UHGV virus genome: UHGV-0268713
Direction: 5' to 3' (one strand)
DNA: 34,690 nt
Origin: a virus
Positions 12,322 to 33,552 of the stretch are shown here, piece after piece. Each line of letters opens with the position of its first letter. Position 1 is the first letter of the stretch. A program made the position numbers and the translations under genes. A model generated the notes under the pieces. The model was not told the origin of the DNA. It did not search any database and worked only from the letters and a program-made list of their open reading frames with translations.

Positions 12322-12652
12322 ATCAGCAGCAGAGCGCAAAGCCGCTCAGAGAGCCAGACAAGCTGCATCTGGTGTGCGTAAGCTGGAAATTGTGCTTGAT
12401 GCTCAGGAAATTGAAATGCTGGAGAGTAACTGTGCCACGCGTCGCCCCGGGCGTGCGCCTTACGAATTTGGTGAGTATATAGCGTTACTGATCCGCCAGG
12501 ATGATGCACGCGTGCGCGGGCGTATAAAATCGATCAGCAGAAAACGTTGCGGTAAGTGCGGCGAGAGAGTTCCTGTGAATTCATGCCCGTGTAATGGTGA
12601 CTCGCAATGCTGGGTGACCAAAGGCTGGCATGAAACGAAATTAATAGTGTGA
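12314..12652 (+). CDS. Hypothetical basic, Cys-rich protein
   Basis: ATG at 12314 with an AAGGTGAA Shine-Dalgarno; C-terminal CGKCGERVPVNSCPCNGDSQC cluster; its stop codon lies inside the GTGACATGTCAC palindrome. Confidence 0.5.
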   Translation: MAKSAAERKAAQRARQAASGVRKLEIVLDAQEIEMLESNCATRRPGRAPYEFGEYIALLIRQDDARVRGRIKSISRKRCGKCGERVPVNSCPCNGDSQCWVTKGWHETKLIV

Positions 12653-12660
12653 CATGTCAC
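12649..12660. promoter_or_regulatory. 12-bp perfect palindrome GTGACATGTCAC, copy 1
   Basis: Exact 12-mer, followed by GAAGGTGTTAT; 10 nt upstream of the ATG at 12670. Confidence 0.4.
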
Positions 12661-12669
12661 GAAGGTGTT

Positions 12670-12882
12670 ATGCCAAAAATACGCTACGACCTTGAAGATA
12701 TGAGAGATAACTCAGCAAATTTTCCGAAAGAGGTTAAATTTCTCATGCATAAGTATGGTTGCGCCAGGAGGGATATAGTTATCGACAGTCAGCACCCTTG
12801 CGGCGAGGATGTAATTTTCATTCGCGGTAAATGGGAAGGGTATCTTGACGAGAGTTTTTACGATGAATTTGATGGACTTTGA
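12670..12882 (+). CDS. Hypothetical small protein (70 aa)
   Basis: ATG at 12670 with a GAAGGTG Shine-Dalgarno; the ORF track gives 12649-12882. Confidence 0.5.
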   Translation: MPKIRYDLEDMRDNSANFPKEVKFLMHKYGCARRDIVIDSQHPCGEDVIFIRGKWEGYLDESFYDEFDGL

Positions 12883-12924
12883 ATACTGCCGCCAACTATG
12901 GCGGCTTTATTTTGCATGGTACTA

Positions 12925-12957
12925 TTACCACAACGGTAACTATTACCACGGTGGTTA
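12925..12957. promoter_or_regulatory. Tandem operator motifs immediately upstream of terS
   Basis: Perfect TTACCACAACGGTAA (12925-12939) and imperfect TTACC-N5-GGTTA (12943-12957), the latter ending at the terS start codon. Confidence 0.45.
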
Positions 12958-13553
12958 TGATGCCTGCTGAACCTAAAACCTATAAACGCAAATCAACGCA
13001 ATTTAAGCCACTAACAGCAATGCAGGAGGCTTATTGCCAGTCATACATCAAAACGCCTGAAAATCAGACTCAGGCTGCGATTAACGCAGGATTCTCCCCA
13101 AATACAGCGGCAGTTAAAGCCAGTGTCATGATGCGCGATGAACGCATTCAGAAACGGATTGCCGAGCTGATGGAAGAGCGCAACAAACGAATGCGCGTCA
13201 GTGCTGATTACGTTCTCATGCGCCTGGTGGAGATCGACCAGATGGACGTGATCGACATCCTCAACGACGATGGGAGCCTTAAGCCAATCCGCGAGTGGCC
13301 GAAAATCTGGCGCACTACGCTTAGTGGCTTTGATCTGTCATCGACCATCATGAACATGAACGAGGATTCGATAGAGACAATCCTCAAAAAAATTAAATGG
13401 CCTGACAAGGTGAAGAACCTTGAGCTGATTGGTAAGCATGTTGATGTCAACGCGTTCAAAGAACGTCTGGATGTTAATGTGAATGTGACAATTGCTGATC
13501 GCATAGCAGCAGCCAGGAAGCGACTCAAAGAACGTCAGGATGGTAATCAGTGA
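12957..13553 (+). CDS. Terminase small subunit
   Basis: ATG at 12957 (the ORF track's upstream extension encodes a low-complexity TITTTVTITT stretch); HTH-like TAMQEAYCQSYIKTPENQTQAAINAGFSP; directly upstream of the large subunit. Confidence 0.7.
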   Translation: MMPAEPKTYKRKSTQFKPLTAMQEAYCQSYIKTPENQTQAAINAGFSPNTAAVKASVMMRDERIQKRIAELMEERNKRMRVSADYVLMRLVEIDQMDVIDILNDDGSLKPIREWPKIWRTTLSGFDLSSTIMNMNEDSIETILKKIKWPDKVKNLELIGKHVDVNAFKERLDVNVNVTIADRIAAARKRLKERQDGNQ

Positions 13554-15025
13554 CAGATACAGCGTTATCTCCTGAAGAGCAGTTAATCGAGGATATTGCA
13601 GGGTTCACTCACGATCCGCTTGGCTATGCCCTCTATGCGTTCCCATGGGGGGAAGAGGGGACTGAACTGGCACATGCCACCGGCCCACGTCAGTGGCAGG
13701 CTGATGCGTTCCGAGAGATACGTGATCACCTGCAGAATCCAGAGACGCGCTATCAGCCGCTTATGCTGGCACGCGCTTCTGGTCACGGTATTGGTAAATC
13801 CGCATTCATCTCAATGCTGATCAACTGGGGCATGTCCACTTGCGAGGATTGTAAGGTCGTGGTGACCGCCAACACCGACAACCAGCTACGAACGAAGACC
13901 TGGCCGGAAATTATCAAGTGGTCGAACCTTGCTATCACGAAAGACTGGTTTACCTGTACCGCTACCGCGATGTACAGCAATGATCCTGGGCACGACAAGC
14001 GGTGGCGGGCTGACGCAATCCCCTGGTCTGAGCACAACACTGAGGCATTCGCAGGACTACACAACGAGCGCAAACGCATCATCGTGGTATTCGATGAAGC
14101 GTCGAACATTGCGGATCTGGTGTGGGAAGTTGCTGAGGGTGCGCTTACGGACGAAGACACTGAGATTATCTGGGTGGCGTTCGGAAACCCTACACGTAAC
14201 ACCGGGCGTTTCCGCGAATGTTTCCGCAAATATAAACACCGCTGGAAAACTGCGCAGATTGACAGCCGGACGGTGGAAGGCACTAACAAACAGCAGTTGC
14301 AGAAATGGGTTGATGACTACGGGGAAGACAGCGACTTCGTTAAAATCCGTGTGCGCGGCATATTCCCTGATGCATCTGAATTGCAGTTTATCCCTACCGG
14401 TCTTACTGATGAGGCAATGAAACGGGTGGTAACCGCTGCGCAGGTGGCGCATGCTCCGGTGATAATCGGTGTTGACCCGGCATATTCAGGCGTTGATGAC
14501 GCGGTGATATACCTGCGGCAGGGGCTACACAGTAAGGTGCTGTGGACTGGCAACAAGACCACCGACGATCTGATTATGGCGAAGCGTATCGCTGACTTTG
14601 AAGACCAGTACCATGCTGACGCGGTGTTCATCGACTTCGGTTACGGAACCGGTCTGAAGTCAATCGGTGATGGCTGGGGTCGTACATGGCAACTTGTTCC
14701 GTTCGGTGGTGCGTCAACTGACCCTCAGATGCTCAACAAGCGCGGGGAGATGTTCAACTCATGTAAGACATGGCTGAGGCTGGGCGGCATGCTGGATGAC
14801 CAGGAAACAGCGGACGACCTGTCGGCGGCAGAGTACAAAGTTCGAGTGGACGGTAAAATCGTTATCGAACCGAAGGAAGATATCAAGGAGCGGCTTGGGC
14901 GTTCTCCTGGTAAAGGCGATGCGCTACTGCTGACGTTTGCGTTCCCTGTGTCGAAGCGTCTGCGAATTCCCGGGCAGCAGAACCAGCAAGGCAAGGCCAT
15001 CACAGATTACGATCCCTATGCTTAA
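13550..15025 (+). CDS. Terminase large subunit
   Basis: 491 aa; Walker A-like GHGIGKS, Walker B-like IIVVFDEAS, C-terminal acidic nuclease-like region (IGVDPAYSGVDDA). Confidence 0.85.
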   Translation: MTDTALSPEEQLIEDIAGFTHDPLGYALYAFPWGEEGTELAHATGPRQWQADAFREIRDHLQNPETRYQPLMLARASGHGIGKSAFISMLINWGMSTCEDCKVVVTANTDNQLRTKTWPEIIKWSNLAITKDWFTCTATAMYSNDPGHDKRWRADAIPWSEHNTEAFAGLHNERKRIIVVFDEASNIADLVWEVAEGALTDEDTEIIWVAFGNPTRNTGRFRECFRKYKHRWKTAQIDSRTVEGTNKQQLQKWVDDYGEDSDFVKIRVRGIFPDASELQFIPTGLTDEAMKRVVTAAQVAHAPVIIGVDPAYSGVDDAVIYLRQGLHSKVLWTGNKTTDDLIMAKRIADFEDQYHADAVFIDFGYGTGLKSIGDGWGRTWQLVPFGGASTDPQMLNKRGEMFNSCKTWLRLGGMLDDQETADDLSAAEYKVRVDGKIVIEPKEDIKERLGRSPGKGDALLLTFAFPVSKRLRIPGQQNQQGKAITDYDPYA

Positions 15026-15075
15026 TCCGCTGGTGGGGATAATGTCGTTGATATCCTCTGGTGAGGATAAAACAA

Positions 15076-15095
15076 AGCCAGCTCATAGGCTGGCT
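15076..15095 (-). terminator. Terminator hairpin between convergent genes
   Basis: AGCCAGC-TCATAG-GCTGGCT; T-rich on the minus strand (TTGTTTTAT), weaker on the plus strand. Confidence 0.45.
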
Positions 15096-15099
15096 GTTT

Positions 15100-15111
15100 G
15101 TGACATGTCAC
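15100..15111. promoter_or_regulatory. 12-bp perfect palindrome GTGACATGTCAC, copy 2
   Basis: Exact 12-mer followed by GGTGTTAT, as in copy 1; sits between the terminase large-subunit stop and the reverse-oriented gene. Confidence 0.4.
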
Positions 15112-15115
15112 GGTG

Positions 15116-15448
15116 TTATTTCGGTAGATTGTGTTTGGCATTCGACTCGTCTATCACGTAACGCATTGCAGTTCGACCGAGATTACCAGGATCTTCATGC
15201 AGACTCACTCGTGCCTTTAGGAGCACACATTCAGCCTTGACATAGTTTGCTGGAATTATTCCTACCTCGGCATTTTTAAATGCCTCCTTCACCGCCTCAC
15301 CGTTGTACTGACCGCCAAGCAACTCTGTACATGTCAGGTTGTTATGGATAATTGCAAGGAGATCTTTAATCTCTTCACGCAGGTTTACAATCGCCATCGC
15401 GGCATTGATAGCTGCGGCATAGCGCTCAGCTGCAGTCTTCTCTTTCAT
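15116..15448 (-). CDS. Hypothetical protein, reverse-oriented accessory gene between terminase and portal
   Basis: ATG at 15448 with an AAGGTGA Shine-Dalgarno; 110 aa; opposite strand to the flanking late genes; preceded by hairpins. Confidence 0.55.
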   Translation of the reverse strand: MKEKTAAERYAAAINAAMAIVNLREEIKDLLAIIHNNLTCTELLGGQYNGEAVKEAFKNAEVGIIPANYVKAECVLLKARVSLHEDPGNLGRTAMRYVIDESNAKHNLPK

Positions 15449-15648
15449 GATTTTCACCTTAAAAAAATGCCCGGACGAACCGGGCGAACTGGAAGCAATG
15501 AGTTATGCCTTCCGTGGCTGTACTGGTTTACAGCATGAAGTCATCGCAATGGCGTCCTGCTGTAAAAAGGGCGGTGATAGCCCTTCAAGGGAAACCATCA
15601 CCGCCAAGCCCCTGGAACTTCTGGCATCACGGTCCTTAGGCGTGATTC

Positions 15649-15725
15649 TGGCGTGGCATGCAGGATTCGAACCTGCGACCAACCGCTTAGAAGGCGGTTG
15701 CTCTGTCCAACTGAGCTAATGCCAC
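15649..15725 (-). tRNA. tRNA-Arg (anticodon UCU)
   Basis: Minus-strand sequence GTGGCATTAGCTCAGTTGGACAGAGCAACCGCCTTCTAAGCGGTTGGTCGCAGGTTCGAATCCTGCATGCCACGCCA folds by eye into a cloverleaf: 7-bp acceptor stem, D-arm GCTC/GAGC, anticodon stem ACCGC/GCGGT with loop CUUCUAA, T-arm GCAGG-TTCGAAT-CCTGC, encoded CCA. Confidence 0.85.
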
Positions 15726-16047
15726 AACGCTGAGAGCACTTAGCCTGTTAAGGCGCCACACTTTGTCGCGGCTCCATAAATGCTCTCATCGTTGTACCCT
15801 CGTCTCTTCCGAGGCGTCACACCGAATCGCCGGGATGGTGAATCCCCGTGCGCGGAATAAAACCGCTCGACTTGCACATTCCGGCTACCTGGTTCGTTTG
15901 CCCGAGCAAGGGAGGGGGCCCCTTAAACGTATCCAGACCGCTATCGGCGCATGTGCCATACGCCGTACTGCTCAAAATAAAAGCTCACTCCACCTGTTCA
16001 ATTTAACGACAAGCCAGTCAGGTTAATAACCGGAATGAATCATTTAC

Positions 16048-16062
16048 TTACCTGAAAGGTAA
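16048..16062. promoter_or_regulatory. Perfect operator motif upstream of the portal region
   Basis: TTACCTGAAAGGTAA, about 90 bp upstream of the ORF at 16153 and about 310 bp upstream of the portal gene. Confidence 0.45.
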
Positions 16063-16152
16063 TAATTCGTGCGTTAAATGTCAACTATCTACGATAAATA
16101 AATCATATGTGGTTAAATTGGTAATAATTAAATTGCGTACGGAGTCATTGAT

Positions 16153-16359
16153 ATGTGCATGGGTAGCTCACCGTCAGTGCCTGCAACACCAGAAGTTCAG
16201 GCAGCACCACAGGAGCAGGATGCCGCCGTTGTTGATGCCCGCGACGAAGAAACTCGTCGCCGTCGCGCTGCTGCTGGTCGTAGTTCTACGCTGCTTACCG
16301 GTTCTCAGGGCGACACATCAACCGCTAATACCAGCGGTAAAACGCTGCTTGGTCAGTAA
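16153..16359 (+). CDS. Hypothetical small protein (68 aa)
   Basis: ATG preceded by the 12-nt CGGAGTCATTGA that also precedes the portal start codon; Ala/Arg-rich, low complexity, so coding status is uncertain. Confidence 0.4.
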   Translation: MCMGSSPSVPATPEVQAAPQEQDAAVVDARDEETRRRRAAAGRSSTLLTGSQGDTSTANTSGKTLLGQ

Positions 16360-16373
16360 CCGGAGTCATTGAA

Positions 16374-18053
16374 ATGGCGGAAACAACTAAAGAGCGATTG
16401 AACAAACAGTTCGCACAACTTGAAAGCGAGCGTCAGTCGTTCGAGCCGCACTGGCGCGAGTTGAGTGATTACATCAACCCGCGTGGTTCCCGCTTTCTGA
16501 CTTCTGAGGTCAACCGTAACGATCGACGCAATACACGCATTATTGATTCGACCGGGACTATGGCGGCGCGCACTCTCGCCAGCGGCATGATGTCAGGCAT
16601 CACAAGCCCCGCGCGTCCGTGGTTTCGCCTGGCTACGCCAGATCCTGAAATGATGGATTATGGCCCTGTTAAGTTGTGGCTTGAGGCGGTGCAGAACCGC
16701 ATGAACGATATGTTCAATAAGTCGAATCTCTATCAGTCGCTGCCGCAGTTATACGGAAGCCTCGGCACATACAGCACTGGCGCAATGGCGGTGCTGGAGG
16801 ATGACGAGGACATCATTCGTACAATGCCATTCCCGATAGGAAGTTACTACCTGGCTAACTCACCTCGTGGCAATGTGGACACCTGTTTTCGCAAGTTCTC
16901 TATGACTGTTCGTCAGCTTGTTCAGGAGTTCGGACTAAATAACGTCAGCGAATCCGTAAAAAGCATGTGGGAAAGCGGCACCTACGAGAAGTGGATTGAA
17001 GTGATGCATTCGGTTTACCCGAACATTGACCGCGATACATCGAAGCTGGATAGCAAGAACAAGCCATTCAAATCGGTTTATTACGAGGTTGGTGGCGATA
17101 ACGACAAGTTGTTGCGTGAGTCCGGATTTGATGAGTTTCCAATTATGGCTCCGCGCTGGGAAGTTAATGGCGAAGATGTTTATGGATCATCATGCCCGGG
17201 TATGCTGGCGCTTGGACCTGTTAAGGCATTGCAACTTCTCCAGAAGCGCAAGTCGCAGTTGATTGATAAAGCCACCAATCCGCCGATGGTTGCTCCGACT
17301 TCCCTCAAGAATCAGCGCGCCTCCCTTCTTCCTGGCGACATCACGTATATCGATCAGATTACTGGTCAGGATGGCTTCAGGCCTGCTTATCTGGTTAACC
17401 CCAGTACAGCAGATCTGGTAGCAGACATTCAGGACACTCGTCAAATCATTAACAGCGCCTACTTTGTCGATCTGTTCATGATGTTGCAGAACATCAATAC
17501 CCGCTCGATGCCTGTTGAAGCAGTGATCGAAATGAAAGAAGAAAAACTTCTGATGTTGGGGCCGGTTCTGGAGCGTCTGAACGACGAATGTCTTAATCCT
17601 CTCATTGACCGCGCTTTCTCGATGATGGTGCGTAAAAACATGCTGCCGCCACCGCCTGACGCGATGGAAGGTATGCCCCTGAAGGTCGAATACATTTCCG
17701 TCATGGCTCAGGCGCAGAAGTCTATCGGCCTGTCCAGTCTGGCGTCTACGGTCAACTTCATTGGTCAACTTGCGCAAGCGAAACCAGAAGCTCTCGACAA
17801 ACTCAACGTTGATCAGGCGATCGATGCATTCGCTGATATGTCCGGAGTGTCTCCAACCGTCATTGTTCCGCAGGAACAGGTTGAGCAGGCTCGCCAGCAA
17901 CGGGCACAGCAACAACAGCAGCAACAAATGATGGCGATGGGGATGGCGGCGGCACAGGGTGCCAAGACGCTAAGCGAAGCTAAAACTTCGGATCCGAGTG
18001 TTTTGTCAGCTATGGCGAATGCAGTTAGTGGTCAGGGTGGGCAATCACAATGA
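16374..18053 (+). CDS. Portal (head-to-tail connector) protein, podovirus/T7-like
   Basis: 559 aa; lies after the terminase genes; Gln-rich C-terminal tail; N-terminus consistent with T7-type connector proteins as recalled. Confidence 0.8.
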   Translation: MAETTKERLNKQFAQLESERQSFEPHWRELSDYINPRGSRFLTSEVNRNDRRNTRIIDSTGTMAARTLASGMMSGITSPARPWFRLATPDPEMMDYGPVKLWLEAVQNRMNDMFNKSNLYQSLPQLYGSLGTYSTGAMAVLEDDEDIIRTMPFPIGSYYLANSPRGNVDTCFRKFSMTVRQLVQEFGLNNVSESVKSMWESGTYEKWIEVMHSVYPNIDRDTSKLDSKNKPFKSVYYEVGGDNDKLLRESGFDEFPIMAPRWEVNGEDVYGSSCPGMLALGPVKALQLLQKRKSQLIDKATNPPMVAPTSLKNQRASLLPGDITYIDQITGQDGFRPAYLVNPSTADLVADIQDTRQIINSAYFVDLFMMLQNINTRSMPVEAVIEMKEEKLLMLGPVLERLNDECLNPLIDRAFSMMVRKNMLPPPPDAMEGMPLKVEYISVMAQAQKSIGLSSLASTVNFIGQLAQAKPEALDKLNVDQAIDAFADMSGVSPTVIVPQEQVEQARQQRAQQQQQQQMMAMGMAAAQGAKTLSEAKTSDPSVLSAMANAVSGQGGQSQ

Positions 18054-18346
18054 CAGATTACGAAGACGATCAACTGAAAGAAGAAAACGCCCGTAAGCAA
18101 CGTGACATGGCGCAGCGTGAAATTGATGACATTCGCTTTGTCATGAGCAGTGAACAGGGGCGTCGCGTTGTCTGGTCGGTGCTGGAGAAAGGCCGTGTGT
18201 TTTCCGCTATCTCACCGATGGACGCTATGGCAATGGCATTTAATGAGGGGCAACGCAATCTGGCGCTGGAACTGTTTCAGCGCGTTATGGCGCATTGCCC
18301 TGAACAGTATTTGAAGATGGCCAAAGAGGCCAGTGAACAGGAGTGA
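18050..18346 (+). CDS. Hypothetical head-assembly-region protein
   Basis: 98-aa ORF coupled between the portal and scaffold genes. Confidence 0.55.
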   Translation: MTDYEDDQLKEENARKQRDMAQREIDDIRFVMSSEQGRRVVWSVLEKGRVFSAISPMDAMAMAFNEGQRNLALELFQRVMAHCPEQYLKMAKEASEQE

Positions 18347-19044
18347 TCATGAATTTATTTGAGCGTTTGCTGTATCGCCGTCTTTGCAATGAGCAACCAG
18401 TCGATGGTGGAGCAGCTCCGGCTGCGTCAGAACCGTCAGCGCCTGCAGGTGATAACCCTGCTCCAGTTGGTGATCCATCACAACAGGAAGGTGATAAGCC
18501 ACAACCTGTTGCTGATGGCGATAAACCTGCTGATGACAAAAAGCCTGAAAACGATAAGCAGGATGAAAAAAAGGACGGCGATAAACCAGAGGGTGCGCCT
18601 GAGAAGTACGAGTTTCAGGCTGCCGAAGGCGTAGAGCTGGATACAGAAGCGTTGAAGGAATTCGAGCCGGTGGCGCGAGAACTTAACCTGACCAACGAGC
18701 AAGCGCAAAAGCTGGTTGATGCTTATCCGAAGATTCTGGCAGGTGTTCAGCAGCGCCAGGCAGAAGCCTGGCAGAAAACAACCGAGCAGTGGGCTGCGGA
18801 TGTAAAAGCTGACAAAGAAATCGGTGGCGACAAGTTGATTTCTAACCTTAGCGCCGCACAGCGTGCGCTTGACCAGTTCGGGACACCTGAACTCAAAGAA
18901 TATCTGAACACCACCGGGCTGGGTAATCACCCTGATCTGGTCAAAACGTTCGTGAAAATCGGAAAGGCGATGTCTGAAGATGGCATGGTCACCGGTGGTA
19001 ATGAAGGCCATCGTAGTGCGGCCGAAGTGCTCTATGGCAAATAA
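18343..19044 (+). CDS. Putative scaffolding protein
   Basis: 233 aa, acidic and Pro/Asp/Lys-rich, predicted helical; located between portal and major capsid genes. Confidence 0.55.
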   Translation: MIMNLFERLLYRRLCNEQPVDGGAAPAASEPSAPAGDNPAPVGDPSQQEGDKPQPVADGDKPADDKKPENDKQDEKKDGDKPEGAPEKYEFQAAEGVELDTEALKEFEPVARELNLTNEQAQKLVDAYPKILAGVQQRQAEAWQKTTEQWAADVKADKEIGGDKLISNLSAAQRALDQFGTPELKEYLNTTGLGNHPDLVKTFVKIGKAMSEDGMVTGGNEGHRSAAEVLYGK

Positions 19045-19052
19045 GAGAGGAA

Positions 19053-20045
19053 ATGACAATGGCTGTTAAAGGCTTAACTGCGCTAACGCTGGCTGACTGG
19101 GGTAAGCGCGTCGATCCAAACGGGAAAGTCGATAAGATTATCGAGCTTCTCAGTCAAACTAACCCAATCCTTCAGGATATGCCTTTTGTTGAAGGAAACC
19201 TTCCTACCGGACACCGAACCACCATTCGTTCTGGTTTACCTTCCGCTACCTGGCGTTTGCTGAACTATGGCGTACAACCGAGCAAATCAACAACGGTGCA
19301 GGTCACTGATTCCATTGGCATGCTGGAAACCTATGCTGAAGTCGATAAGTCACTGGCTGATCTGAACGGCAATACCGCTGAATTCCGCCTGTCTGAAGAC
19401 CGCGCATTTATTGAAGCGATGAATCAGCAGATGGCGCAGACGCTGTTTTATGGTGATTCCAGCGTTAACCCTCAGCAGTTTATGGGACTGTCCTCCCGCT
19501 ATTCCAGCCTGTCTGCGGGTAATGCTCAGAACATCATTGATGCTGGTGGCACGGGTACAGATAACACCTCAATCTGGTTAGTGGTGTGGGGCGAAAACAC
19601 CGTGCATGGCATCTTCCCGAAAGGGCAGAAGGCTGGCATCCAGATGGAAGATAAAGGCCAGGTGACACTGGAAGATGCTAATGGCGGCAAGTACGAAGGC
19701 TATCGCACCCATTACAAATGGGACAACGGACTTGCTCTGCGTGACTGGCGTTATGTTGTTCGCATTGCAAACATCGATGTCAGCAATCTTTCAGAACCTT
19801 CCTCTGCCACAAATATTGCGAAGTTGATGGTTAAAGCACTGCATCGCATTCCAAACCGTGGAATGGGTCGCCCGGTGTTCTACATGAACCGCACTGTAGG
19901 CCAGGCTCTTGATCTGCAATCTCTGGAGAAAACATCTCTGGCGATCAGCGTAAAAGAGACAGAAGGCGAGTGGTGGACTTCATTCCGTGGTGTACCAATC
20001 CGTGAAACTGATGCGCTTCTGGAAACAGAATCCCGTGTGGTGTAA
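19053..20045 (+). CDS. Major capsid protein
   Basis: 330 aa, directly after the scaffold gene; the true start may be the ATG at 19059, which has better Shine-Dalgarno spacing. Confidence 0.75.
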   Translation: MTMAVKGLTALTLADWGKRVDPNGKVDKIIELLSQTNPILQDMPFVEGNLPTGHRTTIRSGLPSATWRLLNYGVQPSKSTTVQVTDSIGMLETYAEVDKSLADLNGNTAEFRLSEDRAFIEAMNQQMAQTLFYGDSSVNPQQFMGLSSRYSSLSAGNAQNIIDAGGTGTDNTSIWLVVWGENTVHGIFPKGQKAGIQMEDKGQVTLEDANGGKYEGYRTHYKWDNGLALRDWRYVVRIANIDVSNLSEPSSATNIAKLMVKALHRIPNRGMGRPVFYMNRTVGQALDLQSLEKTSLAISVKETEGEWWTSFRGVPIRETDALLETESRVV

Positions 20046-20096
20046 CGCCTGTTATTAACCAGTGGGTCGTAACAGACCCACTAATGGAGAAAGAAG

Positions 20097-20534
20097 ATGA
20101 TCACCGACAAACTGTTGATGTTCTCCGAAGCACAGGCGGTAACTGATACCGCGGCTTCTACTGACGTAATCGATCTTGGTCCAATTGATGGAAATCGTCG
20201 CGATATCGGCGTGGGTTACCCGCTTGAGTTTTGGGCGCTGGTTAACGAAGCCGCCACGGCAAGTGGTGAGGCAACTGTAAACATCCAGTTGCAGACGAGT
20301 GAGAATAACAGCTCTTGGACCACTATTTATGATAGTGGTGCGTTGGCAAAGGCCACCATGACTGCAGGTAAACGTGTTGTTTCTGCAAAGGTGCCTGCCG
20401 GTGTTCAGCGATATCTGCGTGTTAACTACTCCGTCGCAACTGGCCCACTAACGGCCGGCAAATTCACTGCTGGTATCAGTCTTGATGTTGATGCCAATAC
20501 GCCGTATCCGATCCGCTCAAAAGTAACTGGTTAA
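20097..20534 (+). CDS. Virion structural protein (possible capsid decoration or accessory protein)
   Basis: 145 aa immediately after the capsid gene; composition suggests a beta-rich protein. Confidence 0.5.
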   Translation: MITDKLLMFSEAQAVTDTAASTDVIDLGPIDGNRRDIGVGYPLEFWALVNEAATASGEATVNIQLQTSENNSSWTTIYDSGALAKATMTAGKRVVSAKVPAGVQRYLRVNYSVATGPLTAGKFTAGISLDVDANTPYPIRSKVTG

Positions 20535-20535
20535 G

Positions 20536-20880: not shown

Positions 20881-20896
20881 GCCTCGCGGATCAGAC

Positions 20897-20919
20897 AAGG
20901 GGCTTCGGCCCCTTTATTG
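20897..20919 (+). terminator. Terminator-like hairpin inside the structural operon
   Basis: AAGGGGC-TTCG-GCCCCTT followed by TATTG. Confidence 0.5.
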
Positions 20920-20930
20920 CAGGAGTGTAT

Positions 20931-24794: not shown

Positions 24795-25369
24795 TGTGCG
24801 ATCCGGTTATTGCTGGTGGCGCAATGCTCGCCATGAGTGGCATTCAGGCATACACCCAGTACCAACAGGGAAAGTATGCCTCGAAGGTTGCAGAAGCGAA
24901 CGCAGATATAGCCACTGCTCAGGCAAATGATGCAATAAACAGAGGTAACGCTGAAGCTGAGCAACGGCGCAGAGAGACCCGACAGCGGCTTGGTACACAG
25001 GCGGCGACAATGGGGGCTACCGGCGCTGATTTATCTACAGGTAACGCGCTGGATATATTTGGTGACACTGCTCAGTTTGGCGCTCTTGATGCGCTGACGA
25101 CGGTGAATAACGCGCAACGCGAGGCTTACGGTTATCAGGTTCAGGCTGCCAACTATAAAGCAGAAGCCAGTTCAGCCCGTAAACAGGGGAATGTGGGAGC
25201 AGCAACAACTTTGCTCACTGCGCCTCTGAAGGCATACGGTGCGTACCAGATGTTTGGTGGGACGTGGAGTCCGTTCTCTAAAGGAAGTACATCTAGTGGT
25301 GGGACGCCAATGTTATCTAACTCAGGTTTTATGAATTCTGACTCCCGATTCAAAATAGGAGGTTACTGA
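24794..25369 (+). CDS. Internal virion protein (gp14-like position)
   Basis: 191 aa, Ala/Gly/Gln-rich, typical composition for podovirus core proteins. Confidence 0.5.
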   Translation: MCDPVIAGGAMLAMSGIQAYTQYQQGKYASKVAEANADIATAQANDAINRGNAEAEQRRRETRQRLGTQAATMGATGADLSTGNALDIFGDTAQFGALDALTTVNNAQREAYGYQVQAANYKAEASSARKQGNVGAATTLLTAPLKAYGAYQMFGGTWSPFSKGSTSSGGTPMLSNSGFMNSDSRFKIGGY

Positions 25370-28086: not shown

Positions 28087-31000
28087 TGCCAGTTTATGCA
28101 CAAGCTGAAGATCTTAATAACGGACTGATCCCGTCAGGTAATGTTTTGCCGGAACAAACTGGGTTTGATGTTGCCCTTCCGGAAGGGGCTAATCCTGAGC
28201 CATTGCCACCTGAGCCTTCCGTATGGGGGGCTGCAATGCGACAGAACAATATTCTGTCTGGTTTTTTCCGCCCAGCCAGACAGTTTGAACCGGTCGAGGG
28301 TTATAACCCATATGCTGATAAAAATGAGTTGCACGGTTATGAATACTGGGGGGCGAAATTTGCAGATTCCCGATCGCCAGAGGAAACGGCGTGGATTAAG
28401 CAGCAGATAGATGATGAAAATGAAGACAGACGTTTATTGTCTGATGCTGGCGTAGTTGGAACCCTTGCCAGTATTGCTGCGGGAATGGATCCGGTTACTG
28501 TTGCGTCAATGTTTATTCCCGGTGCTCAAGGAGGGGCACTGGCGCGTATTGGCTCACAGATTGCGATTGGTGCTGCCGGTACAGCATTAAGCGAGGTTGT
28601 ACTGAATAATCAGCAAATAACACGCTCATGGGGTGAAAGTGCCGCTCACGTTGCAGCGGGTGCGATGATGAGCGGCGTGTTTGCCAGTGCTGGTGTTGCG
28701 CTTTCGCCATCCGTCCGGGCTGCAGCCACACGTGAGGTTGCTGATGCTCTTGATAATATGAGCATTACATCAGCGACTGACAGGGCTGCCGCTTCGCTTT
28801 CCGATGGTGGTAGTGTTGGTGCTATGAAAATTGATACAGCGACTCTGGATGATTTAACCCCTGTTTCCGGTGGGTGGGTTGGAAAGGCTGCATGGAAAGC
28901 AGGGAGCTATCTTACTCCTTTGACAAGGTTAATGGAGTCTCCGTCCAAGACGGTGCGAAAAACAACGCTGGAGTTAGCCGAAAATAATTTCACCCTTAAA
29001 GGAAATGAAAGGGGGATTGAAACACCGGTAGCTGTAGAAACCCGTACACGTGGATGGCAGCGTGAAGAAGCTGCTGTTGTTGTCGGAAATAAACAGGCAT
29101 ACGCAAAGTATAAAGCTGATGGTGGTGACATGAGTTTTGATTCATTTCGTCAGCAGGTTGGGAATGCTATGCGAAGCGGTGATGTGCATGCTAATCCTGT
29201 TGTTCAGGAAACGGCGCAGGCGATGCGAACTGTATTAAATCGGGTGAAAGTTGAAATGCAAAAGCTTGGTTTATTGCCGCCAGATGAAGAACTGAAAGCA
29301 TTAGGCCAGGCAAGCTATTTCCCACGCATATATAAAGTTGGAAAAATAATCAGTGAACGCGATAAATTTCGACGTATTTTGGTTGGCTGGTGGTCGAGAG
29401 GAAATAAAACACTGGATCCTGAGGATGCTGAAATTGCAGCGGATATCGTAATTAATAAAATTACTGGTGCTAAGGTTCCACAGGATTTTGTCAGCGTATT
29501 TTCTGTAAAAGCCGCAGGTAGTACGAAAGAAAGAACATTAAATGTTCCTGATAGTCTTATCAGGGATTATCTTGAAAGTGATGTGAATTACGTGCTGCAA
29601 CGTCATATCCGTGAAGCGGCAGCAGAAATTGAGTTGACGAGAACATTTGGCAAACGAACTATGACTGAGCGTCTGCAATTAATTGAGGACGAATATGACA
29701 GTCTGTTACGGGAAGTGCCTGAAAAAATAAAGGCGAAATATGACGAAAGTGTGGCAAATCTGAAAGCACGTTATGAGAGCAATGGTGAAGTTGTTCCTCA
29801 GGGTAAACTCGATTCATTAATGCGAAAGTACGAAAAGGAATTACGGAAAGAACAGTCCAGACTTTCAAAATCAAGAGCAAATGATCTCAGAGACATAACA
29901 GCATTACGCGATCGTCTTGTTGGTACATATGGTATGCCTGATGATCCGTCTTCGTTTTTTGTTCGTGCTGGCGCTTTTCTGCGGGATGTGAACTTCACGA
30001 CCAAACTCGGTGGAATGACAGTATCAGCTATTCCAGATCTGGCCAGAGGGGTTATGGTTAATGGTTTCCGTAACACCATGAAAGGCTATGCTTCTCAGAT
30101 ATCCCAATCACCGGCATTTAAGGCCAGCAAAGAAGAGATGTTGAAGATGGGGATTGGATTGGAAGCTGTACTACATTCACGTTCTCGTGCAATTGGTGAT
30201 CTTGTTGACAGTTCTTCCAGGACAACAGCAGTCGAAGCAGGAATGGAGCGAATTACTGATGCCTTCGGCAAGCTGACACTCATGGATCGATTTAATGACA
30301 TAAACAAATCCATGAACGGAATGCTCACGTCAGACGGTATTTTGTCTGGTGCGTTTTCTGCACGTCGCATGGCAAAACTCGGTATCAACGACAATATGGC
30401 TGCGCGTATTCGCAGTGAGTTCGAGAAACATGGTGAGGTAATTGATGGATGGCACATTGGTAACTTTGATAAATGGGACGATCAGTACGTTGCCGGAGTA
30501 TTCCAGTCAGCGGTTCTGAAAGACGTTAATAACACTATCATCACCCCCGGTATTGGTGACACACCTTTATGGGCGAGTACTCCAATGGGGCGAACGATAT
30601 TTCAGTTTAAATCATTCACAACGGCTTCATACAACCGTGCGCTACTTGGTGGGTTACAGGAAGGAACTGCGCAATTTTATTATGGCACTGCATTTCAGAT
30701 TGCTCTTGGCTCACTGGTCTATGCGCTAAAAGAAGCATCGAAAGGGAAAAATGTTGACTGGTCACCAGAGAAGCTGGTGCTTGAGGGTATAGATAGATCC
30801 GGTATTCTTGGGCCATTGATGGAATATAACAACATGGCTGAAAAGGCTACTGGTGGTGCTGTTGGGCTGGGGGCTTTATTTGGCACTGGCACACAGTCTA
30901 GGTATGCCAGTCGTGGATTCGTAGGATCTCTATTCGGACCGTCATTTGGTCTTGCGGATAGCATCATTGATGTGACCGCAGGAGTGTTGAATGGTGATGC

Positions 31001-31100
31001 CGGTGATCGTATTGTGCATAATGTCCGAACCCTGATACCAGGCAATAACCTGTTCTGGATTGCGCCACTAATAAACCAGTTGGATCCGGTGATGCGGTGA
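28086..31100 (+). CDS. Large internal core/ejection protein
   Basis: 1004 aa, directly after the SLT-domain protein; composition is unlike a beta-helical tailspike. Confidence 0.6.
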   Translation: MPVYAQAEDLNNGLIPSGNVLPEQTGFDVALPEGANPEPLPPEPSVWGAAMRQNNILSGFFRPARQFEPVEGYNPYADKNELHGYEYWGAKFADSRSPEETAWIKQQIDDENEDRRLLSDAGVVGTLASIAAGMDPVTVASMFIPGAQGGALARIGSQIAIGAAGTALSEVVLNNQQITRSWGESAAHVAAGAMMSGVFASAGVALSPSVRAAATREVADALDNMSITSATDRAAASLSDGGSVGAMKIDTATLDDLTPVSGGWVGKAAWKAGSYLTPLTRLMESPSKTVRKTTLELAENNFTLKGNERGIETPVAVETRTRGWQREEAAVVVGNKQAYAKYKADGGDMSFDSFRQQVGNAMRSGDVHANPVVQETAQAMRTVLNRVKVEMQKLGLLPPDEELKALGQASYFPRIYKVGKIISERDKFRRILVGWWSRGNKTLDPEDAEIAADIVINKITGAKVPQDFVSVFSVKAAGSTKERTLNVPDSLIRDYLESDVNYVLQRHIREAAAEIELTRTFGKRTMTERLQLIEDEYDSLLREVPEKIKAKYDESVANLKARYESNGEVVPQGKLDSLMRKYEKELRKEQSRLSKSRANDLRDITALRDRLVGTYGMPDDPSSFFVRAGAFLRDVNFTTKLGGMTVSAIPDLARGVMVNGFRNTMKGYASQISQSPAFKASKEEMLKMGIGLEAVLHSRSRAIGDLVDSSSRTTAVEAGMERITDAFGKLTLMDRFNDINKSMNGMLTSDGILSGAFSARRMAKLGINDNMAARIRSEFEKHGEVIDGWHIGNFDKWDDQYVAGVFQSAVLKDVNNTIITPGIGDTPLWASTPMGRTIFQFKSFTTASYNRALLGGLQEGTAQFYYGTAFQIALGSLVYALKEASKGKNVDWSPEKLVLEGIDRSGILGPLMEYNNMAEKATGGAVGLGALFGTGTQSRYASRGFVGSLFGPSFGLADSIIDVTAGVLNGDAGDRIVHNVRTLIPGNNLFWIAPLINQLDPVMR

Positions 31101-31111
31101 GTTAAACGCCT

Positions 31112-31723
31112 TTAGCATGATTCAGGGGAAACCCCAATATTAAATATGAGTGACTCCCCTGAATCAGCATAATAATGTAATATTATTGACTTACGTTGTT
31201 TTCTTGCTTCGTAGAATAAACGCTCTTGCGGCGATAATTTGTGAAAACTGCCGGATGCACAATATATGTTTTTTAACTTTTCGCTGGTTGCTTTTATTGT
31301 ATCTTCTGAGATGTATTTTAGGTATTTATCCGTATAGATGTTGCTACTATAAGAAATTAATGTTTTGCTGTTGTTGTGATGTATTGTATTTTTATCGTTG
31401 AAGTCTGTATTTTTATTTACTGTCATTAGGTTTTTAATGATTACATGTAATGCAATAGTCTCCCCATCATCAATTCCATATTTGATGTCATAGTCAGTAT
31501 ATTTATTTGTTATACCGCTTCCTGATAGCGGCACTATGTACTCTGAGAAAAATGAGTTTGCCGCGTGACCATCAAGAGCAATAGCAGTTTTTTTGTGGTA
31601 AAAATAAAACAATATTGAGAGAGTCAAAATAATAGCGACGCCTAATGCAACCTTTAATATAGATATGGTTTTCAAAATATCGCTCCTTGTTGTAACATAC
31701 ATCAGTAATGTGGCGTTTTTCAA
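31112..31723 (-). CDS. AT-rich single-pass membrane protein (candidate superinfection-exclusion or lysogenic-conversion protein)
   Basis: Strongly AT-rich versus the rest of the window; N-terminal hydrophobic segment ILKTISILKVALGVAIILTLSILFYFY; directly downstream of the Mnt-like gene on the same strand. Start ambiguous (TTG 31723 or ATG 31702). Confidence 0.55.
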   Translation of the reverse strand: MKNATLLMYVTTRSDILKTISILKVALGVAIILTLSILFYFYHKKTAIALDGHAANSFFSEYIVPLSGSGITNKYTDYDIKYGIDDGETIALHVIIKNLMTVNKNTDFNDKNTIHHNNSKTLISYSSNIYTDKYLKYISEDTIKATSEKLKNIYCASGSFHKLSPQERLFYEARKQRKSIILHYYADSGESLIFNIGVSPESC

Positions 31724-31765
31724 TTGTATTAAAGACGTGTAATATGTACACGCCTTTTGTTCTTC

Positions 31766-32197
31766 CTATTCAGGTATTTCAATTCCAAAACCATCTGCAT
31801 CCCATGAGTTTTCACAGATGATGTAACCTAGTTCATTGAGCTTATTAAATGTTTTTTCAAAGATGATCTGGTAATCATTATCTGCAAGTGATTCCAGTTC
31901 AAGGTCATTAAGGTTTATATAAAAACTTGTATGTCCAAGTGTTATTTTTTTATTGATTTCATTAAAAGTTCTTTTGAAAATAATATTTGATATTTCATGC
32001 CGTGCATTGTTTGCAATAATTTTTGCTTCATAAGCAGAAATTACGTCATCTTCATGAATATCTTTCAGAAAGCTGGTGTCAAGACGTTGTACTATTTCAG
32101 CGTTCATTGATCGCTTATTGGCTTTTGCAGAAATTTCTATTTTTTCTTTTACTTCAACGGGAAGTCTGATCCTTAGTTGTGGATCTTCTCTGCTCAT
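31766..32197 (-). CDS. Mnt-like ribbon-helix-helix repressor fused to a C-terminal domain of unknown function
   Basis: ATG at 32197 with a GGTGAAG Shine-Dalgarno. N-terminus MSREDPQLRIRLPVEVKEKIEISAKANKRSMNAEIVQRL closely parallels P22 Mnt (MARDDPHFNFRMPMEVREKLKFRAEANGRSMNSELLQIV, recalled from memory). The remaining ~100 aa are AT-rich-encoded with no recognised domain. Confidence 0.7.
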   Translation of the reverse strand: MSREDPQLRIRLPVEVKEKIEISAKANKRSMNAEIVQRLDTSFLKDIHEDDVISAYEAKIIANNARHEISNIIFKRTFNEINKKITLGHTSFYINLNDLELESLADNDYQIIFEKTFNKLNELGYIICENSWDADGFGIEIPE

Positions 32198-32243
32198 GTT
32201 CTTCACCAAATATTGAGTTACTTGCAATGATTGAAGTATGCCT

Positions 32244-32303
32244 CACCGTGTGCTTGACATCAATGACGCACGGTGTGACAATTGTTTTGCCCCACGGTGG
32301 GGC
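32244..32303. promoter_or_regulatory. immI-like divergent promoter/operator region
   Basis: TTGACA (32255-32260), 17-nt spacer, GACAAT (32278-32283) reading rightward; flanking inverted repeat CACCGTG (32244-32250) / CACGGTG (32269-32275); palindrome GCCCCACGGTGGGGC (32289-32303), whose core CCACGGTGG resembles the P22 Mnt operator as recalled. Confidence 0.45.
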
Positions 32304-32317
32304 TAAGGAGATATGAA

Positions 32318-32485
32318 ATGCAAAAAGCAAAAGAGATGTGTCAACGACGAGTTCGTTTTCCGGACGATGTGAAGTTAGCTATTGAAAGAAATGGCGAAAA
32401 AGAATGCCGAAAGTTCAATACAGAGATTATCTATCAGCTGAGGAAAGTGTATGGACTCACTGGTGAGAAGAATAGCGTGGCATAA
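32318..32485 (+). CDS. Arc-like ribbon-helix-helix repressor
   Basis: ATG at 32318 with an AAGGAG Shine-Dalgarno; 55 aa; RVRFPDDVKLAIERNGEKECRKFNTEIIYQL fits the Arc/Mnt RHH pattern; immediately upstream of the antirepressor. Confidence 0.6.
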   Translation: MQKAKEMCQRRVRFPDDVKLAIERNGEKECRKFNTEIIYQLRKVYGLTGEKNSVA

Positions 32486-32557
32486 AACAGCGAAGCCCAA
32501 CGGTGGCCAGACCGTCAGGGCTTCAGTATCGTAAAACTACGTATAGGAATTAACGAC
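32483..32557 (-). ncRNA. Candidate sar-like antisense RNA covering the antirepressor ribosome-binding site
   Basis: Minus-strand sigma70-like promoter TTGATA (32592-32587), 17 nt, TATACT (32569-32564); hairpin GAAGCCC-N19-GGGCTTC (32492-32524) followed on the minus strand by GCTGTTTTA. Predicted transcript of about 70 nt. Confidence 0.3.
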
Positions 32558-33502
32558 ATGACGAGTATAGCAACAGCGGTATCTACTATCAACGTGCCAT
32601 TCCACGGCGCAGAACTTTATGTTGTCAATCACAACGGAGAACCGTACACCCCAATGAAACCTATCGTTGAAGGCATGGGTATGGATTGGGCTTCACAGTT
32701 TACGAAAATGAAGCAGCGGTTTAAAACCTGCATTGTGAAAATCACAATGCAGCTTCCTGGGGATGAACAGCGCCGTGAGATTATTTGTTTGGCACTTCGC
32801 AAACTTGCTGGCTGGTTGCAAACCATCAGCCCTAACAAAGTCCGCCCTGAAATCCGCGACAAGGTAATCCAGTATCAGGAAGAGTGTGACGATGTGCTCT
32901 ACGAGTACTGGACTAAAGGCCATGTGGTTAACCCACGCAAAGCTAAAAAGGCGTTGCCGGGTAAAATAACCACTGAACAGCAGGAAGCCATTAAACAACT
33001 CGTCATGAGTCGCGGTCAGTCTCTACCAAAAGAAAAACAGGCTAAGGCGATGATCACCATGTGGTCGTCACTGAAATCTCATTTTGGCTGTTCGTACAAA
33101 GAAATTGGTGAAGATCAATTTGCCGAAGCGTTGTCTCTTGTTGCTCGGGTTCCGCTTGAAGGGGAGTATCTCCCTGCTGGATCTGCATCAGAGAATGATG
33201 AAGTGGCAGTCAAGATGTTAGATGCGCTTCGTGAGGCAATTAAAACACAGACAAAATGTTATGGTTATCCACTGAAGCCCGGCTACCGCAGCCTGATTCA
33301 TTCGCCGTCTGGTGTTCTCGGCCTGACGGAGAACTCACTGCTGATGAATTTGCTGAACCAGTTACAGGAAGACGGGCATGACGTATCGGGCGCGGCGGCG
33401 GAACTGACCACCATGTTCTGCTACATCGTCGGTGTGAGTAAATGCCTGCGTGATATCCAGACCCACGCGGAGTACATCAACGACAAGGCAGGGTTCTTCT
33501 GA
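32558..33502 (+). CDS. Antirepressor paralog 2 (AntA-like N-terminal domain plus KilAC-type C-terminal domain)
   Basis: 314 aa; its C-terminal ~75 aa are identical in protein to antirepressor 1; sits downstream of the arc-like gene as in P22 immI. Confidence 0.85.
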   Translation: MTSIATAVSTINVPFHGAELYVVNHNGEPYTPMKPIVEGMGMDWASQFTKMKQRFKTCIVKITMQLPGDEQRREIICLALRKLAGWLQTISPNKVRPEIRDKVIQYQEECDDVLYEYWTKGHVVNPRKAKKALPGKITTEQQEAIKQLVMSRGQSLPKEKQAKAMITMWSSLKSHFGCSYKEIGEDQFAEALSLVARVPLEGEYLPAGSASENDEVAVKMLDALREAIKTQTKCYGYPLKPGYRSLIHSPSGVLGLTENSLLMNLLNQLQEDGHDVSGAAAELTTMFCYIVGVSKCLRDIQTHAEYINDKAGFF

Positions 33503-33540
33503 CAGAACGGCGGCACAGGGATGTGCAAAACGGAACTATC

Positions 33541-33552
33541 GTGACATGTCAC
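33541..33552. promoter_or_regulatory. 12-bp perfect palindrome GTGACATGTCAC, copy 3
   Basis: Exact 12-mer, immediately 5' of a terminator hairpin. Confidence 0.4.

Follow-up and report, generated by a model that had tools for sequence, protein, structure and literature searches.

The three exact copies of the 12-bp perfect palindrome GTGACATGTCAC found in the window, as we call the whole 34,690-nucleotide stretch of viral DNA analyzed here, are probably the cognate DNA boxes of one of the phage's own proteins, a member of the epsilon15 gp49 family (PHROG 536) that is predicted to form a ribbon-helix-helix (RHH) dimer. The window is an epsilon15-like (Uetakevirus) prophage, and the gene and its box form a portable module in which the TGA stop codon of the gene lies within box 1. 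More tentatively, we propose that the boxes may serve as a protein-dependent transcription barrier at operon ends, through which the protein would also limit its own synthesis. Taken as a whole, cognate boxes with a barrier function are, on balance, the explanation that we find best. The gene-plus-site pair is apparently new: our literature search found no published description of it, and none of the 12-mer, a phage "matS-like" site, or a phage MatP-like protein.

The palindromes and their surroundings

The copies lie at 12649-12660, 15100-15111, and 33541-33552, just as the earlier note had listed them. Only ≈0.002 exact copies of GTGACATGTCAC are expected by chance in the window, and a sequence of this size would contain some 12-bp perfect palindrome three or more times with p ≈ 6e-6. 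In Markov simulations (n = 100), 12-bp palindromes reached two copies at most. A fourth match, at 18102, has two mismatches and is at chance level. The 3′ flank said to be common to copies 1 and 2 is indeed present in both as GGTGTTAT, which follows the palindrome after three nucleotides in copy 1 (GTGACATGTCAC-GAA-GGTGTTAT) and directly in copy 2 (GTGACATGTCAC-GGTGTTAT). We also agree that the palindrome differs from the TTACC operator (TTACC-N5-GGTAA), of which the window holds eight sites. Two other identities were considered and rejected. None of the known host operators considered (CRP, LexA, Fur, and others) fits the spacing, and although GTGACA resembles a promoter −35 hexamer, a consistent −10 element is absent across relatives. 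The features around the boxes are as follows.

12314..12652, plus strand: epsilon15 gp49-family gene (PHROG 536), 112 aa from the ATG at 12314, closing the early-right operon
12649..12660, no strand: box 1, GTGACATGTCAC, with the TGA stop (12650-12652) of the gp49-family gene inside it
12670..12882, plus strand: optional 70-aa gene (PHROG 1541) between box 1 and the terminator
12888..12913, plus strand: intrinsic terminator, GCCGCCAACTATGGCGGC then a T-run, at the end of the early-right operon
15076..15095, minus strand: hairpin between terL and box 2, a full terminator with T-run on this strand
15100..15111, no strand: box 2, at the 3′ end of the terS-terL operon
15116..15457, minus strand: exchangeable cassette gene (PHROG 27507) converging on box 2
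33541..33552, no strand: box 3, directly 5′ of a terminator, closing the structural/immI block, here after the antirepressor gene
33553..33578, plus strand: intrinsic terminator, AGGCCGCTTTCGCGGCCT then TGTTTTT, adjoining box 3

In order, the boxes close three rightward transcription units, namely the early-right operon, terS-terL, and the structural/immI block, with terminators beside them at 12888, 15095-15076 (minus strand), and 33553. The placements described previously are borne out at each site. Copy 1 includes the TGA of the ORF ending at 12652. Copy 2 sits between convergent genes (terL ends at 15025; the reverse gene spans 15116-15457), 4 nt from a hairpin that is T-run poor on the plus strand and 4 nt from the reverse gene's stop. 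Copy 3 touches a hairpin at 33553-33570, downstream of the antirepressor gene at 32558-33502. Beyond the first terminator come the TTACC operator of 12925 and, at 12957, what is probably the start of terS, and the epsilon15 record annotates a homologous stem-loop and operator, the counterparts of the 12888 terminator and the 12925 site. The TTACC operators at 12925 and 16048 head the operons that follow boxes 1 and 2, and another TTACC site lies ≈1 kb past box 3. The PHROG 1541 gene is reduced to an 8-codon relic in most relatives. In the window, box 1 stands 228 nt from its terminator, so any co-operation between box and terminator cannot rely on a fixed spacing.

A search of related phages, the check suggested earlier, showed that each of the eight epsilon15-like genomes examined keeps the exact 12-mer at one or more syntenic sites. 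All three sites are present in the window, epsilon15, PAS61, and ZX5, two in phiV10, TL-2011b, and phiv142-3, and one in EC.W1-9; the copy that phiV10 lacks is a 1-mismatch version divided between the ends of the record. Around the sites, the flanks diverge or are replaced by other cassettes. The arrangement of box 1 at the gp49-family stop is identical in 82 of 89 epsilon15-group hits, and across 80 loci box 2 has a conserved left flank and ≈20 different forms of right flank. At box 3, BLAST homology to several relatives begins exactly at 33540-33551. The boxes coincide with mosaic junctions.

The gp49-family protein and its pairing with the box

Of the roles that had been offered for the palindrome, that of a second regulator binding site fares best, in that the motif travels with one protein family, is specific in its spacing, and has a center that covaries with the predicted DNA-reading strand. 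Of 204 loci in which a PHROG 536 homolog occurs, 190 have a GTGAC-NN-GTCAC box at its stop codon, and in 186 of 208 tabulated hits the box overlaps the gene's TGA. The loci with both gene and box include podovirus epsilon15-like phages, myovirus ZF40, Pantoea AH07, P2-like Yersinia phages, siphovirus N15, and Pseudomonas elements. Where the gene is present, a genome has one to three boxes, usually two or three, against 0.03-0.05 expected, and P2 and P22, both without a PHROG 536 gene, have zero. The Vibrio K233-type homologs have no box at the stop codon. Only a spacer of 2 is enriched (128, 105, and 58 copies vs <1 expected); each of the other spacers within 0-7 has 0-4 copies.

The two central base pairs vary together with the predicted beta-strand of the protein. 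An AT center accompanies the strand xKLE(I/L)xLD, a GC center INE(I/V)RxRLE, a TG center T(S/T)RRDW(I/V)LE, and a CG center the Pseudomonas strand IERREVKQS, whereas the GTGAC half-sites and an N-terminal R/K helix remain constant. The pairing of protein and site is drawn from this covariation, over only four to five subfamilies and confounded by phylogeny, together with co-occurrence. Boxes also fall within coding regions elsewhere, in N15 repA, an integrase gene, a Q-like gene, and the ZF40 cII-like gene. In N15-like phages the box inside repA is invariant while adjacent codons are variable. The boxes within genes of other phages do not look like simple operon-end insulation.

By its predicted fold, the gp49-family protein is an RHH protein with a Cys4 zinc ribbon. 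A basic N-terminal helix precedes the RHH core, which has the predicted beta-alpha-alpha fold that dimerizes into a two-stranded sheet, and the zinc ribbon and a C-terminal helix follow. Co-occurrence and the covariation of beta-strand with box center argue indirectly that this sheet binds a short symmetric DNA site. In such a complex, reading of the invariant GTGAC half-sites would fall to the basic N-terminal helix and that of the central two base pairs to the RHH beta-strand. The zinc-binding portion has a marginal likeness to TraR. The top three matches in a PDB HMM search were TraR, TraR, and YbiI (E ≈ 0.025), and hhalign aligns residues 48-107 with TraR 6-65 at a probability of 70.7%. 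The cysteines are arranged as CxxC and then two single residues, and Pfam zf-dskA_traR is absent from the listed matches of the protein. DxxDxA is the acidic tip motif with which DksA and TraR reach the RNA polymerase active site. It is absent from the TraR-aligned region, which reads PGRAPYEFGEYI.

PHROG 536 comprises 153 clusters at 50% identity and occurs in hundreds of prophages of Escherichia, Salmonella, Klebsiella, Yersinia, Vibrio, and Pseudomonas. Its members are at present annotated only as "hypothetical" or "transcriptional regulator."

Possible roles of the boxes

We infer a protein-dependent barrier with self-limitation from the position of the boxes, which close three rightward operons beside intrinsic terminators. 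As the last early product accumulates, it would bind the boxes and block or insulate transcription where operons end. Box 1 overlaps the gene's own stop codon, so polymerase stalled there would give gp49-family transcripts without a stop codon, and the protein would in this way limit its own synthesis. We know of no RHH dimer established as a roadblock to RNA polymerase.

The main rival is a Q-like late switch, which we judge unlikely but serious: the gp49-family protein on its boxes would make polymerase terminator-resistant or activate late transcription, such that early-right transcription continues past the 12888 terminator into terS, and late transcription past the one at 33553. Elements of the epsilon15-like, Pseudomonas, and Vibrio groups have the gene as their final early gene, just ahead of the late genes, and no Q or N homolog is recognized in them. 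Boxes 1 and 3 precede terminators on the plus strand, the stretch from box 1 to terS showed no sigma-70-like promoter, and over its C-terminal two thirds the protein is similar to TraR, a zinc-finger protein that binds RNA polymerase. The Pseudomonas loci add a near-consensus sigma-70 promoter ≈52 nt past the box, followed by two or three intrinsic terminators and a holin gene, an order that matches lambda PR′-tR′. With the gene at the lambda Q position and a strong promoter ahead of terminators, antitermination is thus favored over blocking in these loci. The full Q-type order of gene, late promoter, and terminator is present in Pseudomonas loci L201 and L202; in the window the terminator is present and a sigma-70-like promoter was not found. 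Against a Q-like switch, the module also occurs in phages that already have Q (ZF40, AH07, and N15) or Ogr (P2-like), box 2 comes after its hairpin when read in the late direction, and the Pseudomonas box is centered ≈90 bp before the start site, which sets it apart from known Q-binding elements. Nor does the protein resemble any Q family, with zero Pfam or NCBIfam matches and an RHH fold by prediction, and the TraR tip is missing. A bolder idea, to which we give somewhat less credence still, is that PHROG 536 represents a new class of DNA-tethered elongation regulator, in which the RHH domain would read the matS-like GTGAC-N2-GTCAC and a TraR/DksA-like zinc module would engage polymerase on its arrival at the box, the gene-and-box module being portable between phage types. 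Such a regulator might stop polymerase, making a protein-made terminator that limits itself through its own stop codon, or it might license read-through as a fourth kind of Q.

The remaining explanations set transcriptional control by the phage protein aside. The E. coli matS consensus is GTGACATTGTCAC, a 13-bp GTGAC-RNY-GTCAC (PMC3603311, PMC8669397). The half-sites of GTGACATGTCAC are identical to those of matS, and the boxes could accordingly be architectural sites of the MatP/matS or parS kind, which the protein would bridge or mark, either folding the phage chromosome or acting on host SMC (MukBEF) or segregation machinery to control it, the target then not being transcription. Few copies per genome, some inside genes, are typical of architectural sites, and many hosts belong to the MatP/MukBEF clade. 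We nevertheless consider this improbable. The spacer of the boxes is strictly 2 bp and never the matS-like 3 (overall, spacer 3 was seen 0-1 times vs 58-128 for spacer 2), and P2-like phages have a single box and thus nothing to bridge. The gp49-family protein lacks the MatP architecture of four-helix bundle, RHH, and coiled coil (Pfam PF06303, PF17414). Sequence homology to MatP was rejected as well: MatP was not among the PDB HMM matches, and hhalign against it was not significant. The family also occurs in Pseudomonas, a genus not known to have MatP. Binding by host MatP or another host factor in place of a phage protein is hardly credible, even though the box equals consensus matS minus one central base. 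The 13-bp form is essentially absent and the 12-bp form enriched >100-fold, and in lineage after lineage the box stays physically linked to the phage gene, with a center that varies with the gp49-family protein. Prophages avoid true matS (PMC3603311), which also argues against host MatP as the binder.

Two other roles had been raised in the earlier note. The suggestion of an RNA processing or termination element stands only insofar as terminators adjoin the boxes in epsilon15-like phages. Boxes 2 and 3 touch terminator hairpins and would fall in transcript 3′ ends, where a small hairpin might act in processing, stability, or termination, but these hairpins are elements separate from the 12-mer. 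The 12-mer itself folds at only −1.2 kcal/mol (4-bp stem) with no U-run of its own, and Rfam has zero families at the sites. An RNA hairpin needs no perfect palindrome through its loop positions, the asymmetric center in N15 occurs in both orientations relative to mRNA, and boxes are found in genes on either strand. We give an RNA-level role next to no weight. A recombination or packaging site, with boxes as joints for cassette exchange or pac-type cleavage, gained no positive support and is very improbable. Homology to relatives does break exactly at the boxes, one box 2 faces ≈20 right flanks, boxes 1 and 2 bracket the terminase genes, and GGTGTTAT recurs in the flanks of copies 1 and 2. Flank counts in the 80 related loci, however, gave no recombinant flank combinations, and no inversions or deletions between boxes were seen. 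Twelve base pairs are short for homologous exchange, no dedicated recombinase co-occurs, and the module is present in cos phages too (N15 and P2-like). A conserved functional island among exchangeable morons would give identical breakpoints.

If the boxes are the cognate sites of the gp49-family protein, a widespread phage family gains a target site and a testable role, and the early/late operon limits of epsilon15-like phages, where no Q or N homolog is recognized, could be accounted for. An operator inside the regulator's own stop codon would be a rare layout. The near-matS box, one base shorter than matS, illustrates how the spacing of half-sites might be set by RHH proteins, and its near-identity to matS brings up the question of whether it engages in cross-talk with host Ter/MukBEF.

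Comparison with known systems

The gp49-family protein shares with RHH repressors (Arc, Mnt, CopG, omega, ParG, and antitoxins) a predicted fold, small dimers, and a short symmetric site nearby. The operators of those repressors overlap promoters and stand 5′ in the unit that they regulate, whereas the gp49-family site lies at the 3′ end of its gene, at operon ends, or inside genes, and the protein has an extra basic helix and a zinc ribbon. An analogy in layout is LacI on O3 at the lacI 3′ end, reportedly a roadblock (Abo et al. 2000) that yields non-stop lacI mRNA and tmRNA tagging. There too, the operator lies over the 3′ end of the regulator's coding sequence and offers a route to self-limitation, but the protein family is different and the likeness is analogy only.

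TraR and DksA are C4 zinc-finger proteins of the polymerase secondary channel. The gp49-family protein aligns marginally with TraR and differs in cysteine spacing and in lacking the acidic tip, and its RHH domain caps the helix expected to enter the channel. Lambda Q has the same place as last early gene just upstream of the late genes and, in the Pseudomonas relatives, the same succession of site, strong promoter, and terminators. Its site, however, is within the promoter and not ≈90 bp upstream of the start site, and the gp49-family protein has no sequence or fold similarity to Q, has several sites per genome, and is found even in phages that have Q. Finally, MatP reads matS through helix alpha4 plus strand beta1. 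The phage system differs in its 2-bp spacer, in its phage-encoded 112-aa zinc-ribbon protein, and in having one site at the gene's own stop codon, but the way in which the gp49-family protein is proposed to read its box, with a basic helix on the half-sites and a beta-strand on the center, parallels that of MatP.

Boxes in the window and in epsilon15-like relatives

As the earlier note had claimed, the 12-bp perfect palindrome GTGACATGTCAC, here called the box, occurs in three exact copies, which we recovered by scanning the window and reading the sequences directly. The positions of ORFs and hairpins likewise agree with the context given there for each copy.

Boxes of the window and the intrinsic terminators beside them
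12649-12660: box 1, includes the TGA stop codon of an ORF that ends at 12652
12888-12905 (+): terminator by box 1
15100-15111: box 2, 4 nt from a hairpin; terL (to 15025) on one side, a reverse gene (15116-15457) on the other
15095-15076 (-): terminator by box 2
33541-33552: box 3, downstream of the antirepressor gene, abuts a hairpin at 33553-33570
33553-33570 (+): terminator by box 3

About 0.002 exact copies are expected in the window, the probability of any 12-bp perfect palindrome reaching at least three copies in DNA of this size is ≈6e-6, and none exceeded two copies in 100 Markov simulations. A fourth site at 18102, with two mismatches, is within chance level. Each box has an intrinsic terminator beside it, and three successive rightward units end at the boxes: the early-right operon, whose final gene is of the gp49 type, terS-terL, and the structural/immI block. 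Operators of the form TTACC-N5-GGTAA at 12925 and 16048 head the terS and head operons after boxes 1 and 2, and a further such site (34590) lies ≈1 kb past box 3. The window has eight inverted repeats of this kind in all, the other five at 6222, 6284, 6996, 9283 and 9345. The epsilon15 record labels matching sites as repressor-binding. Beside the site at 12925 we detected no sigma-70-like promoter.

The window is an epsilon15-like (Uetakevirus) prophage with TL-2011b, phiV10, and PAS61 as its closest relatives. Conservation and position in related phages, which the earlier note had named as a check, bear out the palindrome: the 12-mer occupies the same syntenic sites in seven epsilon15-like phages, with three copies in epsilon15, PAS61, and ZX5, two in phiV10, TL-2011b, and phiv142-3, and one in EC.W1-9. 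The sites lie at the gp49-type gene's stop codon, just past the terL hairpin, and just before the structural-block terminator; the copy "missing" from phiV10 is a one-mismatch copy split over the ends of the GenBank record. Salmonella phage epsilon15 keeps the 12-mer exact between strongly diverged flanks. BLAST homology with relatives begins or ends at the boxes, and across 80 further IMG/VR loci each box has one constant and one variable side; at box 2 the right flank takes about 20 forms. The palindrome is not annotated in the updated epsilon15 record, which marks TTACC-type repressor, IHF, and RNase III sites and terminators, nor was the 12-mer found in the literature searched.

Several other features of the window were recorded. 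The right flanks of boxes 1 and 2 share GGTGTTAT (12661-12669 and 15112-15119, 3-nt offset), one copy forming a Shine-Dalgarno sequence and start codon and the other containing the stop codon of the reverse gene; this sharing may be due to chance or to an ancient duplication. A 70-aa gene (PHROG 1541, 12670-12882) lies between box 1 and its terminator. Most relatives carry instead an eight-codon relic, ATGCATGATGAATTTGATGGGTTTTGA, with the same C-terminal codons, so the short form looks like a deletion derivative. The longest terS ORF (12879-13553, TTG start at 12879) spans the terminator hairpin and the TTACC operator, and translation probably begins at ATGATG (12957; MMPAEPK...), the start given in the TL-2011b annotation. 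A tRNA-Arg(tct) gene (15649-15725, -) lies in the variable stretch that separates box 2 from the head operon. Rfam matches were a P22-type sar antisense RNA upstream of the antirepressor gene (32489-32556, -; 45.2 bits, threshold 43) and sRNA-Xcc1 (2174-2263, -; 62.9 bits, threshold 53). Through a 235-nt inverted repeat, 96% complementary (1475-1709 and 33269-33503), a reverse gene beside the integrase contains a second copy of the antirepressor gene's 3' part. The adjoining 3' flank recurs as a 39-nt exact direct repeat (1452-1490 and 34652-34690) that runs up to the last nucleotide of the window; a third copy may therefore extend past it. The early-right region has a 28-nt direct repeat (7815-7842 and 8024-8051), each copy with a hairpin GTAACGC..GCGTTAC followed by AAAAGGAGT, and a 24-nt near-perfect inverted repeat (31118-31166) lies in a low-GC segment (GC 0.34) around 31-32 kb.

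The gene-plus-box module and its protein

The gene that ends in box 1 (12314-12652, +) belongs to PHROG 536, labeled "transcriptional regulator", and encodes a gp49-family protein that matched no Pfam or NCBIfam family. Homologs were found by tblastn in 151 records from phages of widely differing type, from which representatives were fetched for box counts.

Boxes in representative phages (identity to the window protein where given)
Pectobacterium ZF40: myovirus, 66% (tblastn); three exact GTGACATGTCAC, one 2 nt past the homolog stop codon
N15: siphovirus, 35%; three GTGACTGGTCAC, one holding the gp46 stop, one within repA
Yersinia vB_YenM_56.17: P2-like; GTGACGCGTCAC at the stop
Pantoea AH07: myovirus; GTGACCTGTCAC at the stop, one exact GTGACATGTCAC elsewhere
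Vibrio K233: 31%; three boxes, none at the stop
Pseudomonas elements: ≈30%; GTGAC(CG/TG)GTCAC at the stop, plus more copies

Only 0.03-0.05 boxes of the form GTGAC-NN-GTCAC are expected per genome. A box lies at the stop codon in 190 of 204 homolog-bearing loci, mostly with the TGA inside it; loci of the epsilon15 group that depart from this have a single-base variant or meet the end of a record. When GTGAC-Nk-GTCAC was tallied for k = 0-7 as an internal control, k = 2 alone was enriched (128, 105, and 58 copies versus <1 expected), other spacers giving 0-4. In P2 and P22, which have no PHROG 536 gene, the inverted repeat is absent at every spacing. The repA-internal copy is unchanged across N15-like contigs, in contrast to the codons on either side. 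The PHROG 536 gene closes an early operon, or is the penultimate gene of one, in the P2-like, Pseudomonas, and Vibrio elements examined. Judged from these sequences, the palindromes are one instance of a conserved module, GTGAC-N2-GTCAC plus PHROG 536, that spans many phage architectures, a finding more general than the earlier note saw; no description of this module was found in the literature searched. The N15 copies of GTGACTGGTCAC are at 28550, 33237, and 39269, one inverted, and K233 has at 19491, in addition to its three 12-bp boxes, one 13-bp inverted repeat, GTGACACCGTCAC, that fits the matS consensus.

An alignment of 56 diverse PHROG 536 members has a conserved basic N-terminal segment (AAxRKxxQRxR), a short strand followed by two helices, and a Cys-rich segment (CxKCG..LP.GC.G...GD..CW) in which C80 and C83 are invariant and C100 nearly so. 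Sequence searches gave weak ribbon-helix-helix (RHH) and RepB matches. The C-terminal two thirds marginally resemble the DksA-type zinc fingers TraR and YbiI (PDB HMM E ≈0.025; hhalign probability 70.7%); we do not place the protein in the DksA/TraR family, as the acidic tip motif is absent and the Cys spacing differs. The half-sites GTGAC/GTCAC are constant across subfamilies, and the central dinucleotide is subfamily-specific and tracks the predicted beta-strand.

Predicted strand and box center
xKLE(I/L)xLD: AT
INE(I/V)RxRLE: GC
T(S/T)RRDW(I/V)LE: TG
IERREVKQS (Pseudomonas): CG

This covariation, drawn from only four or five independent subfamilies, is as expected if an RHH sheet reads the center and the conserved basic helix reads GTGAC. 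The boxes are probably binding sites of the gp49-family protein, and among the roles the earlier note had listed, that of a second regulator site is the one supported.

Possible roles at operon ends

Because the boxes close three units beside terminators and the gene sits late in early operons, we tentatively favor a role for the boxes at the ends of operons as a protein-dependent barrier to transcription or as an insulator, although this reading may well prove wrong. Bound at the box, the putative regulator would stall polymerase over its own stop codon and, since the box overlaps that codon, yield non-stop transcripts. The protein would so limit itself, as LacI does at O3, where self-limitation of this kind is known. 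If true, this would explain why the stop-codon overlap is kept across lineages at ≈30% identity.

The main rival, of opposite sign, is a Q-like antiterminator, which we consider less likely. In its favor, the gene occupies the Q-slot position, no Q or N is recognized in epsilon15-like phages, and in Pseudomonas elements a near-consensus promoter lies ≈52 nt past the box, with two or three terminators between it and the holin gene; against it, the module co-occurs with Q or Ogr in ZF40, AH07, N15, and P2-like phages. An architectural, MatP-like role is possible but weaker, and binding of the boxes by host MatP is unlikely. The other roles in the earlier note fared poorly. An RNA hairpin is unlikely given its energy of -1.2 kcal/mol, the lack of any Rfam family at the sites, and the mixed orientation in N15, and a recombination or pac site is unlikely too, as recombinant flanks were not seen in the 80 IMG/VR loci.

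The two Pseudomonas loci (L201, 6035-6331; L202, 10387-10670) carry, 3' of the homolog, the promoter TTGACA-17/18-TATCTT or TAAGAT, and the initial transcript holds a conserved CTAGCGTGGTGA before the two or three intrinsic terminators. By its layout this is a predicted lambda PR'-tR'-like late control region with no recognized Q gene.

Comparison with MatP/matS

The site of MatP is GTGAC-RNY-GTCAC, with the E. coli consensus GTGACATTGTCAC (PMC3603311; PMC8669397), and the phage box is one central base shorter than that consensus and otherwise equals it. In MatP, an RHH protein, helix alpha4 and strand beta1 enter the major groove (PMC8669397), an order that matches the helix and strand at the N-terminus of the phage protein. 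True matS motifs are reported absent from 500 Escherichia and Salmonella prophages (PMC3603311). We rejected membership in the MatP/matS system since the phage spacer is strictly 2 bp, the other domains of MatP are absent, and there is no significant sequence similarity. The PHROG 536 family is also present in Pseudomonas, a genus not known to have MatP. Overall, an RHH regulator with a palindromic site is a kind already known; new here are a site placed at operon ends and over the stop codon of the gene itself, half-sites like those of matS, and the addition of a predicted zinc ribbon.
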